Shown in pieces: positions 25,891 through 58,742 of a DNA stretch of 64,000 nucleotides; the first letter of the stretch is position 1, and the number at the start of each line of letters is the position of its first letter. Below the pieces are notes generated by a model, which saw only the letters and a program-made list of their open reading frames with translations, did no database searches and was not told the DNA's origin. The position numbers were made by a program, and so were the translations under genes. The stretch comes from Ostreococcus lucimarinus (taxonomy: Eukaryota): assembly GCA_000092065.1 (NCBI GenBank), contig CP000595.1, one strand, 5' to 3'.

Positions 25891-28800
25891 TTATTCGCGC
25901 GCGGTCGAGGACGAAGCGCCGCCGAAGCCGAAAAATTTGCCCAGACGGGACGCCGAGGAGGCGGCTTCGGCGCGCTCGCGATCGGCTCGGCTGGGAGCGC
26001 GCGCGAACGCGCGAGGTCGGGCGACGCTTTCGTCGTCGACGACGGTCGTGGTGACCTTGCGGACTCGAGCGATGCGCTCGCGCTCGGGCTTTGGCGGCGG
26101 TGGCGAAGATGGGGTGAAAGCGCGTGGTTTGGCGATGGGCGCGTCGTCGTCGACGCGCCTCTTGGTCACCTTGCGAACGCGAGCGACGCGTTGGCGTTGC
26201 GCCTTCTCAATTTTGGGTTTGGTGAACGCCGGAGCGGACGGGTAGTCCTCATCGTCGATGTCATCGTCGAGTGCTTCGTCGGGGAAGCACTCGGCGCAGT
26301 AGACGTTGCCGTCTGGACCGGGCATGACGTCCTCCGGTTCCATCTCACGCGAGCAGTTCGGACACTCGAAGGGCGCCGGCGCCTTGGACGAAGCTTGTCT
26401 TGGCGCTTCGTCCATCTCAGGTTCTTCCTCGGGTACGCACCGCGGGCAGTAATCCTTCCCGCCTGGACCCGTGATGATATCGTTCAACGTACACGGTGCG
26501 TCGCAATTCGGACACGTGGGGATTGAGCGTTTTCGCTGTGGCGACCAACATTTCGGACAGAATTGCCCACCGTCGACCTTGATGACGTCTTCGGGCTCGC
26601 ACGGCGTCTCGCAGTTCGGGCACACGAACGGCTCCGGCGCGCAACGCGGGCAGTGTTTCTTGCCGTCGACGTCGCTGATCGCGACTTCTTCGGGCTCGCA
26701 CGGCGTCTCGCAGTTCGGGCACACGAACGGCTCCGGCGCGCAACGCGGGCAGTGTTTCTTGCCGTCGACGTCGCTGATCGCGACTTCTTCGGGCTCGCAC
26801 GGCGTCTCGCAGTTCGGGCACACGAACGGCTCCGGCGCGCAACGCGGGCAGTGTTTCTTGCCGTCGACGTCGCTGATCGCGACTTCTTCGGGCTCGCACG
26901 GCGTCTCGCAGTTCGGGCACACGAACGGCTCCGGCGCGCAACGCGGGCAGTGTTTCTTGCCGTCGACGTCGCTGATCGCGACTTCTTCGGGCTCGCACGG
27001 CGTCTCGCAGTTCGGGCACACGAACGGCTCCGGCGCGCAACGCGGGCAGTGTTTCTTGCCGTCGACGTCGCTGATCGCGACTTCTTCGGGCTCGCACGGC
27101 GTCTCGCAGTTCGGGCACACGAACGGCTCCGGCGCGCAACGCGGGCAGTGTTTCTTGCCGTCGACGTCGCTGATCGCGACTTCTTCGGGCTCGCACGGCG
27201 TCTCGCAGTTCGGGCACACGAACGGCTCCGGCGCGCAACGCGGGCAGTGTTTCTTGCCGTCGACGTCGCTGATCGCGACTTCTTCGGGCTCGCACGGCGT
27301 CTCGCAGTTCGGGCACACGAACGGCTCGTCTTCCGGTACATCCTCCCGCAAGCACTCGTTGCAATATTCCAAATCATCCGGACCGATGACGATTTTATTC
27401 GGCGGCTCTACGGTGATTCCGCAATTTGGACAGTTGACATCCTTTTTGCGAGGACAATTTGGCGCTTCATGATCCGTCATACCGCAGATGGAGCAGCGCG
27501 AATCCGGCATGACGAGGTTCTTGCGCGCCAACTCATCGCTCGGCTCTTCGAGCACCGCATGCACACTCGGCGACTCCGCGAGCGGTTTTCTCTCTTGTGC
27601 TTGTTTGAATTGTGCTTGAAGCGCTTCCGATGGCTTTACGGTTGGATTCGCGCGGAAGCAGAAATCGCCAAACGCGAGCATAAACTTCTTCGCGTCCAGC
27701 CGGCTCCCTTGGCAGCACAAGTACCCGTCAGGTTTTTCATCGATGGCGTGCACCCAGCCATGTCGAGCGCCGTGGTACACCCAATCAGGAGTCGACGTTG
27801 AGAAATCGCTGTAGGTTCGGAAGACCAATTCACCAAACTTGTTCAATGGACTCTCGGCACCGACGGCCCACATTGTTGCAGCCTTGAACTCCATCACTCC
27901 CATGCCATCCTTGTCGGTGAAAGCCTTGTACACAGTGCTCACAGCGCGGATGTCCTCGTCAGACGATTTGCCTTGCTTCTTCATAGCCGTCGCAAATCTC
28001 GCTTGTGCTTCGTATGCTTCGACGATATGATGCGCCTTAGGGCGAAGTATGCGTTCAATCAGCCAGCGCGTTGCGCGAGCGACGCCTCTATCTGTCAATG
28101 GCACGCGATGACCGTAGATGATCCAAGCCATGAAGACGAGGGAAGTGAGGAATTCATCCAGGTGCATTCCCCAAGCGTGCTTGATACGCAGCTCCAACCT
28201 CGGACCTTCGCTCGGACATAGCGATCCTTCAACTGAGCCAGTCTCTCGATCGAGTGTGAGACACTTGGCGAGAAGCTCGGGCGCCTTGACGGTATCGAAT
28301 ACCGATCGAACGACGGCTGAGAGCTGATTGTACTGCGAGTTCGGTAGTTTGTCCTCAATCTTGCAACTCGAGATGAGGTACATGAACTGACGGTAAGACA
28401 TGAGCAAGTGATCATCCGCACCGACGCGCGTTTCGTTGTCACTCGGACCAGACGGAATCGACGCGTATGTTTTGAACAAACCCTCCAAAAATGTCCAGTG
28501 ATTGCGAATCTCGCTCCAGACGTAATAGTTGCCATCTTCGGGCTCGAAAGAAGTCAGCACATGGTTCGGTTTGCTGATACCCTTGCGAGTAAGCGGAGCG
28601 GCATCTTGGATGAGCTCCTTACCATTGTTGCGGTAACGCAGAATCGTTCGTTCAAGAGGTTTTGAATTGCTGTCCGCAAGCATTCTGCGCAAGTCGAGCA
28701 CCGTCATTTCCGGATTTTCGTGAACAAGATTAGATTGGAGCACCGGTTGCGCCAACACTGGCCCTTCTTCAATATCCGGTCGAGCGTACATTCGTTCATC

Positions 28801-58742: not shown

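Follow-up and report, generated by a model that had tools for sequence, protein, structure and literature searches.

A neighbouring pair of giant predicted receptors of the CRMP type, one with a voltage sensor, in the picoalga Ostreococcus lucimarinus

Two giant genes, here named A and B, lie head to head in a stretch of 64,000 nucleotides of Ostreococcus lucimarinus (GenBank assembly GCA_000092065.1, contig CP000595.1), which is called the window below. Judged by sequence, their predicted products are receptors of the CRMP type, with a nine-helix membrane core that belongs to a very large pan-eukaryotic family. The CRMP family is known yet poorly understood; malaria and Toxoplasma parasites need it for cell invasion. 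In A and B this receptor type is present, as two neighbours kept together, in a eukaryote that ranks among the smallest free-living ones. Two natural hints to a mechanism are offered by the overlap of the core family with fungal TRP-like proteins, which are putative mechanosensitive channels, and by a calcium-channel sensor on one algal member. A and B are predicted to be among the largest surface proteins of this wall-less picoalga and could be involved in contact or mating, or in the recognition of grazers or viruses. Related Ostreococcus species are genetically manipulable. The genes and their spacer are as follows.

25891..35439, minus strand: gene A, predicted CRMP-like giant receptor; open reading frame (ORF) to 35631; dN/dS 0.30; ortholog of 2,903 amino acids (aa)
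35778..58742, plus strand: gene B, predicted CRMP-like giant receptor with voltage sensor; ORF from 35688; dN/dS 0.28 (aa 31-1938)
35440..35777, no strand assigned: shared divergent spacer with AT-rich, TATA-like island and polymorphic (CGA)n tract

The assignment is based on the membrane cores.

30160..31392, minus strand: A, nine-helix membrane core, aa 1414-1824; CRMP/PF06011-related profile; AlphaFold2 (AF2) model
55827..57380, plus strand: B, nine-helix membrane core, aa 6714-7231; CRMP/PF06011-related profile; AF2 model

Nine long helices were modelled by AF2 for the core of A (pTM 0.66). The core of B was modelled with a pLDDT of ~75-90 and contains a cytosolic insert of ~150 aa after helix 3. 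A first-pass annotation of this DNA had stated that the transmembrane (TM) modules of both proteins align, and this was confirmed: BLASTP aligned A 1235-1557 with B 6542-6842 (E=4.6e-18), and with family profiles the two modules align over their full length. The same colinear motifs, following ephrin-like repeats, are seen in four protist proteins that were found with B. Few matches, and no named proteins, came from word-indexed homology searches that used one of the membrane modules or the alignment of both. When 1.84 billion cluster representatives were searched exhaustively with a profile, 31,106 were detected at E<=1e-3, of which 3,262 reached E<=1e-30. Giants with the core near the C-terminus are numerous among the 31,106, and the named family members belong to Amoebozoa, CRuMs, Chlorophyta (the green alga Nephroselmis) and Alveolata. 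Among the ORFs of the window, only A and B carry the core.

The relation to the CRMPs was examined with an independent profile of 145 family members, from which A, B, their orthologs and all CRMPs were left out; E values refer to a nominal one million sequences. The six published CRMP core sequences were taken from the supplement of PMC9815656. Full-length matches were obtained with B (aa 6710-7212, E=4.7e-64) and with A (aa 1413-1816, E=4.7e-30). The same profile matched the cores of TgCRMPA (3.6e-47), PbCRMP1 (8.6e-46) and PbCRMP2 (3.2e-37), furthermore PbCRMP4 (8e-21), TgCRMPB (3.6e-18) and PbCRMP3 (2e-8), and none of the reversed-sequence controls scored. With hhalign, the alignment containing A and B matched the CRMP cores at 99.4% probability. 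Thus, the earlier statement that no described family has this architecture has to be given up, since the cores belong to an already characterised family that includes the CRMPs.

The family also overlaps with PF06011 ("TRP"), which we take to be the TRP-like family of fission-yeast Pkd2 and the budding-yeast Flc proteins. When scanned singly, 31 of 46 family cores matched PF06011 (best E=1.4e-11). Ten cores were scanned separately; nine matched, at profile positions ~155-420, and five passed the cut-off of 28.5 bits. Pfam scans, here and below, covered the whole proteins, chunks of 700-800 aa and short segments. The juxtamembrane cysteine module DUF7630, placed immediately ahead of helix 1, was detected in TgCRMPA, PbCRMP1 and PbCRMP2 (E~1e-18); A gave E=4 and B no match. 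The alignment shows a similar C..C..GY..C..C pattern. The link between the nine-helix CRMP cores and PF06011, together with the DUF7630 shared by the family members P0089-P0113, TgCRMPA and PbCRMP1/2, may deserve a study of its own. Neither point is brought up in the CRMP papers PMC9815656 and PMC9670195, which are also silent on ion channels, TRP and polycystins.

For A and B, hydropathy and the AF2 helices predict an outside N-terminus, nine helices and an inside C-terminus. This predicted topology puts both C-terminal tails in the cytosol and the S1-S4 segments of B in the standard orientation. These segments and the tail of B were located as follows.

57486..57854, plus strand: B, stand-alone S1-S4 voltage sensor of Cav/Nav type, aa 7267-7389; Ion_trans and Cav2 matches
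57855..58739, plus strand: B, conserved cytosolic tail of 295 aa (aa 7390-7684) that begins immediately behind S4; 63-70% identity across lineages to ~aa 7600

The best solved relatives of the sensor are the Cav2 (Cav2.3) voltage sensors I and III, with the pre-S1 region included in the match (E=6e-34). Conserved in five lineages are the S2 motif Phe-x-x-Glu...Lys, the S3 Asp and an S4 ladder of at least six Arg/Lys at every third position. From the parts of a voltage-gated cation channel, B has the S1-S4 sensor with S4 ladder and S2/S3 counter-charges. An S5-P-S6 pore was not found in B: the Ion_trans match (E=3e-13) covers only profile positions 1-112 of 241, and no hydrophobic segment follows S4. 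The cytosolic tail had no Pfam match. The 150 best members of the family, few compared with all 31,106, contained no second voltage-sensor fusion.

Large ectodomains precede the cores, with lengths of ~1,400 aa in A and ~6,650 aa in B. Their recognised modules and the unclassified stretch of B are listed here.

34867..35190, minus strand: A, two PSI-like 'GCGWC' modules, aa 148-255; Pfam PSI E=9.6e-4 in two stretches, below the curated cut-off
34477..34839, minus strand: A, EGF-like units, aa 265-385; weak EGF_Teneurin and EGF_2 matches
32824..33150, minus strand: A, cadherin-like/Big_9 beta-sandwich, aa 828-936; Big_9 E=3e-12, Cadherin_4 E=1.4e-8
31684..31905, minus strand: A, ephrin-receptor-like/TNFR-like cysteine repeats, aa 1243-1316; Ephrin_rec_like E=1.6e-8
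36720..37022, plus strand: B, two PSI domains, aa 345-445; Pfam PSI E=7.8e-6, 26.6 bits, above the 23.1-bit cut-off
37200..37982, plus strand: B, EGF-like array, aa 505-765; five EGF_Teneurin stretches (E=5.9e-13) and EGF_2
38043..38273, plus strand: B, Kringle domain, aa 786-862; Pfam Kringle match of 56 bits (cut-off 34.3), E=5.2e-15
38280..53537, plus strand: B, ectodomain stretch of ~5,000 aa, aa 865-5950, no recognisable family; open frame
53556..54596, plus strand: B, cadherin-like/Big_9 beta-sandwiches, aa 5957-6043 and 6208-6303; Cadherin_4 E=3.2e-9, Big_9 E=2.8e-5 and 3.9e-4
55293..55532, plus strand: B, ephrin-receptor-like/TNFR-like cysteine repeats, aa 6536-6615; Ephrin_rec_like E=3.7e-11

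The domain order that the first-pass annotation had ascribed to both proteins is largely borne out by Pfam; in A, the PSI match stays below the curated cut-off and the EGF match is weak. By BLASTP, the EGF regions of A and B were alignable with E~1e-13. VNDAP/VNDPP junctions, described earlier as joining the beta-sandwich modules, exist as a motif, yet they occur only once in A and twice in B. The Kringle domain of B had been overlooked. Between the leader and the PSI pair of B lies a domain of ~270 aa of no recognised class. For aa ~865-5950 of B no Pfam or NCBIfam match was found and self-BLASTP detected no internal repeats; a weak somatomedin-B-like module is located near aa 2907.

Three further parts of A are listed next.

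33805..34326, minus strand: A, TM - ubiquitin-like loop - TM hairpin, aa 436-609; two hydrophobic segments, proline-rich stalk next
27322..30159, minus strand: A, long cytosolic tail, aa 1825-2770; conserved in the ortholog P0082
26227..27498, minus strand: A, CxxC...CxxC zinc-ribbon array; weak Zn_ribbon and DZR matches

The hairpin, which splits the ectodomain of A and is absent from the earlier description, has a loop of ~110 aa that resembles ubiquitin residues 11-75 (E=0.003). The loop ends with LKLRG in the window, LKLRGG in P0082 and LKLLG in contig L003, resembling the cleavage end LRLRGG of ubiquitin. In two other lineages the hairpin is 70-73% identical, which is above its flanks; the hairpin is therefore coding and no intron. 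If the ectodomain faces outward, the ubiquitin-like loop is predicted to lie in the cytosol.

The tail of A comprises 1,420 aa in all, with about ten CxxC...CxxC zinc-ribbon units at its end. No Pfam or PDB match was detected for the long tail, aa 1825-2770. Tandem Repeats Finder identified a 99-bp tandem repeat (minisatellite) at 26584-27327 with 7.5 copies of 99% identity. The 98.7%-identical environmental strain (contig L001) has exactly one extra in-frame copy. Thus, the copy number of the 99-bp repeat varies within the species complex. The divergent cytosolic ends, a zinc-ribbon array in A and a voltage sensor in B, are as described earlier. An apparent link of the A tail to the glucan water dikinase gene was rejected; the odd BLAST row came from the second record (L002) of the same FASTA file.

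Both ORFs are uninterrupted, and the ORF listing of the window returned exactly the two that had been reported: A at 25891..35631 on the minus strand (3,246 codons) and B at 35688..58742 on the plus strand (7,684 codons). In all 500-codon blocks of A and B, G+C peaks at the third codon position. The ORF limits, set by the first in-frame start codons, are 56 bp apart. The likely starts are Met65 in A (nt 35439, resulting in 3,182 aa) and Met31 in B (nt 35778), because the upstream parts of the ORFs cross an AT-rich, TATA-like island and a (CGA)n tract; in both proteins a hydrophobic leader comes next. These starts result in a spacer of 338 bp at 35440-35777, in agreement with the shared promoter region of about 340 bp proposed before. 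Within the spacer, the TATA-like island covers ~35490-35575, and a comparable island is present in a second species. The (CGA)n microsatellite at 35716-35758, detected as a tandem repeat, lies just upstream of the likely start of B and shows a length difference (indel) of 9 bp in the related strain contig L001. The view of A and B as intron-free-looking giant genes for predicted modular surface receptors was thus retained, with a homologous membrane module in both.

Comparison with the 98.7%-identical strain (L001) gave dN/dS values of 0.30 for A, 0.17 for the membrane core of A and 0.28 for aa 31-1938 of B, which points to purifying selection on both genes. P0082, an environmental gene call of 2,903 aa, is an ortholog of A and aligns in a single alignment over 2,850 columns with 60% identity. 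The sensor region of B matched 28 metagenome loci with ~100%, 70% and 64% identity. Sixteen of these loci were checked, and in every one the frame was open over the complete 10-kb upstream flank as well as over sensor and tail. This open stretch corresponds to the last ~3,780 codons (~11.3 kb) of B in 4-5 lineages that are 58-68% identical to one another. From aa ~3900 onward, the identity of B across lineages is 52-74% with open frame. For aa ~1660-3240 of B, the support is the open frame itself. Fast evolution of the central region of B, suggested by only 30-40% identity to L002 and L004, was rejected: the low values are due to error-rich assemblies, and the cleaner metagenome contigs give 52-74%. 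Pseudogenisation in L001 was rejected as well, as the frame breaks are mostly 1-bp insertions, which were judged to be assembly errors.

The head-to-head pair and the neighbouring retinoblastoma protein (RB) gene recur in two other contigs, one from the 98.7%-identical strain and one from a more distant Ostreococcus lineage. In this second lineage (L002 and L003, one contig of 497 kb), the RB gene lies beyond A and the glucan water dikinase gene beyond B, and B is about equal in length. In both, the two genes keep this orientation and a spacer of ~0.35-0.4 kb. Exact look-ups of full-length A gave no recorded gene with exactly this product. No NCBI or UniRef protein was among the matches to either membrane module in the searched collection, in which the neighbouring O. 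lucimarinus proteins are present. From these search matches, at least the membrane modules of A and B seem to be missing from public protein sets.

What could such a pair do? The best explanation, to which we give an even chance, is that A and B form a heteromeric contact or force sensor similar to CRMPA/B, possibly a channel. Both proteins would be made together from the shared spacer, in analogy to Toxoplasma CRMPA and CRMPB, and would pair through their nine-helix cores. The giant ectodomains might bind, or be pulled by, something outside the wall-less cell. The cores would then carry the signal across the membrane, possibly through a stretch- or contact-gated cation pathway as in fission-yeast Pkd2. 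The Cav-type sensor of B and the cytosolic domain following it might make this output dependent on the membrane potential, or report the potential to the cytosol. The long tail of A, together with the ubiquitin-like loop and the zinc-ribbon array, may serve as a docking scaffold. Because of the PF06011 link and the fused voltage sensor, an ionic or electrical output is the most attractive reading, reached by transitive homology. Reconstituted S. pombe Pkd2 passes calcium on membrane stretch (PMC9727806; bioRxiv 2022.08.11.503631).

Several results weigh against such a sensor. A profile made from three apicomplexan CRMP cores alone does not reach A or B, and single-sequence phmmer gave no connection between the apicomplexan CRMP cores and the two algal proteins. 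No correspondence of A and B to the CRMPA and CRMPB clades was found: identities are 14-17%, and the CRMPs rank 127-151 among 152. In direct scans, PF06011 matched neither of the two proteins even at E<=10, and the link runs via other family members. The core models match no solved fold, and nothing was found with the core profile in PDB sequences. Divergent neighbours are common in compact genomes, which lessens the case for co-regulation. To our knowledge, no extrusome or rhoptry-like organelle has been described in Ostreococcus; therefore the apicomplexan function is not simply transferable. Obligate pairing of CRMPs and their role in triggering regulated exocytosis are known only for Toxoplasma (PMC9815656, PMC9670195). 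Furthermore, the channel nature of Pkd2-type proteins is still without single-channel proof (PMC9727806).

A bolder version of the sensor is doubtful at present. B would be a new voltage-dependent device, in which a Cav-type S1-S4 is coupled to a Pkd2/CRMP-type core, and would form with A a contact- or force-gated, voltage-modulated cation pathway. If this were true, apicomplexan CRMPs would trigger rhoptry discharge by ion flux and not by GPCR-like (G protein-coupled receptor) signalling.

Somewhat unlikely, but the strongest of the competing explanations, is that A and B are independent adhesion or signalling receptors of the CRMP family. They would neither pair nor conduct ions, the core would be a GPCR-like transducer or an anchor, and the adjacency would be meaningless. 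In the family alignment of 152 members the two cores share only 15% identity and are not each other's closest relatives. About a quarter of the neighbouring gene pairs in compact genomes are divergent. In addition, TgCRMPa and PfCRMP1 were classified as GPCR-like by PANTHER, and adhesion-GPCR-like signalling was proposed for them (PMC9670195). However, no 7TM or GAIN match was found by Pfam, and a fused Cav-type sensor is hard to explain for a pure anchor. The adjacency of two family members, kept in a second lineage, is unlikely by chance if the genome holds few of them. The best-studied members, TgCRMPA and TgCRMPB, act as an obligate pair; they are mutually dependent and predicted to heterodimerise via their nine-TM cores (PMC9815656).

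It appears improbable that A and B reside in internal membranes, such as the endoplasmic reticulum (ER), the vacuole or secretory vesicles, and serve ion or cofactor homeostasis instead of surface recognition. The core family overlaps PF06011, which presumably includes the ER-located Flc proteins of yeast. S. pombe Pkd2 is also located in the ER (PMC11333956), and the TgCRMP signal is mostly intracellular, appearing at the surface only for a short time (PMC9815656). On the other hand, ectodomains of 1,400 and 6,650 aa that combine PSI, EGF, Kringle, cadherin-like and ephrin-like modules typify outward-facing proteins, and the plasma-membrane Cav-type sensor argues for a membrane that carries a potential.

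The first-pass annotation had regarded A and B as an ancient tandem-inverted duplicate pair. An undescribed receptor architecture that arose by such a duplication specific to these picoalgae is very improbable. The common domain order, the BLASTP alignment of the ephrin-plus-TM regions and the position side by side on opposite strands would fit it. However, with 31,106 representatives across Amoebozoa, CRuMs, Chlorophyta and Alveolata, including the described CRMPs, the core family is not confined to picoalgae. Among the 152 members, B ranks 141st among the relatives of A, and A ranks 150th among those of B. Both cores are 20-25% identical to many members from other organisms, each being closer to ~140 foreign members than to its neighbour. 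Thus, nothing marks them as mutual duplicates.

Next to no credence goes to an artefact, in which the long ORFs would be frames left open by chance, fused gene models or pseudogenes in decay; the comparative data contradict it already. The missing records for A and for both membrane modules, in a database holding the neighbouring proteins, and the broken frames in related long-read contigs could be cited for it, but 7,684 stop-free codons are not credible as chance, dN/dS is well below 1, and the 16 metagenome contigs that were checked, which come from several lineages, all have open frames. The breaks in L001-L004 are for the most part insertions of 1 bp, as is usual for error-prone assemblies.

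The surroundings of the pair are ordinary eukaryotic genes, coding for OGG1, SNAPC3, Vps41, acetolactate synthase, RB, an AMP-binding/ankyrin protein and glucan water dikinase. Two ORFs neighbouring A and B show 100% identity to XP_001421625 and XP_001421626, both proteins of O. lucimarinus CCE9901, the strain to which the window belongs. The gene for the fusion of an AMP-binding enzyme with ankyrin repeats (58891-61977) is located between B and the glucan water dikinase gene. It was found at this place in four Ostreococcus lineages (L006, L013, L020, L026). The L031/L002 lineage lacks it and has the dikinase gene immediately behind B. A 698-aa ORF on the minus strand (16242-18338) adjoins the RB gene. 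Its product has an N-terminal hydrophobic segment and cysteine-rich Furin-like_2 repeats (E=2.5e-8) and is thus a further candidate for a secreted or surface protein, although without the nine-helix core. The G+C content of A and B (28000-34000 and 38000-58000) is 50-57% compared with 60-68% in the neighbours. This is mainly caused by a lower G+C content at the third codon position, ~0.55-0.69 over most of A and B versus 0.69-0.78 in the in-frame neighbours, which suggests a weaker codon bias. Overlapping ORFs of 300-400 aa in other frames or on the opposite strand were observed at 26417-27801 (repeat region of A) and at 35108-36569 (G+C-rich 5' ends); we take them as by-products of G+C-rich coding sequence and not as genes.

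Compared with CRMPs and fungal TRP-like proteins, the ubiquitin-like hairpin and the variable zinc-ribbon array of A, the voltage-sensor fusion of B and the size of its unclassified ectodomain appear to be new, and so does a conserved neighbouring pair of CRMP-type genes in a green picoalga. A literature search gave no paper connecting CRMPs to green algae, or these domains to Ostreococcus.

In Apicomplexa, CRMPs consist of a Kringle module (CRMPA clade) or a lectin module (CRMPB clade), EGF, ephrin-receptor-like repeats, nine helices and a cytosolic tail (PMC9815656, PMC9670195). Like the apicomplexan and ciliate CRMPs (TgCRMPA/B, PbCRMP1-4, TtCRMP1/2), A and B are very large, with signal peptide, cysteine repeats, a nine-helix core of ~400 aa and a cytosolic C-terminus. 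Leader, EGF-like and ephrin-receptor-like repeats are present in both, the EGF units of A being weak. A Kringle domain is described for TgCRMPA and PfCRMP1 (PMC9670195); B has one like CRMPA, whereas A showed no Kringle or lectin match. As with the best-studied CRMPs, there are two divergent paralogues; theirs work together. In contrast to the CRMPs, the host is a free-living green picoalga and the relation to the apicomplexan cores is remote, with 15-17% identity, being visible only with profiles. B additionally contains ~5,000 aa of unclassified ectodomain and the voltage sensor, A the TM-ubiquitin-like-TM hairpin and a tail of ~1,400 aa with the zinc-ribbon array. DUF7630, strong in the CRMPA clade, was undetected by Pfam in A or B.

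The fungal TRP-like proteins (S. pombe Pkd2, Trp663 and Trp1322; S. cerevisiae Flc1-3), which we take to be members of PF06011, have the topology of A and B, with nine helices in ~400 aa. Their ectodomain is small, Ig/ML-like and lipid-binding, and a voltage sensor is missing, whereas A and B have giant cysteine-rich adhesion arrays. For S. pombe Pkd2 a signal peptide, a small ectodomain, nine TM helices and a tail were described (bioRxiv 2022.08.11.503631).

As in Hv1, voltage-sensing phosphatases and TMEM266, the S1-S4 of B shows a regular Arg/Lys ladder in S4 without an S5-P-S6 pore. As in voltage-sensing phosphatases, S4 runs directly into a conserved cytosolic domain, but the tail of B has no phosphatase or other Pfam domain. 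By inspection of the sequence, B has neither the mid-S1 aspartate nor the S4 motif RxWRxxR, which we assume to be typical of Hv1. Unlike these pore-less sensors, that of B is nearest to Cav/Nav domains I and III and is placed behind a nine-helix core in one polypeptide.

Whole-protein and chunked Pfam scans detected no 7TM, secretin-like, GAIN/GPS or teneurin core domain in A or B, and unlike in adhesion GPCRs the membrane part consists of nine helices of a different family. In general, adhesion GPCRs and teneurin-like receptors of animals resemble A and B in the long modular ectodomain (EGF, Kringle, cadherin-like, PSI) on a membrane part with several passes or a single one, and the role proposed for all of them is to turn contact or force into a signal.

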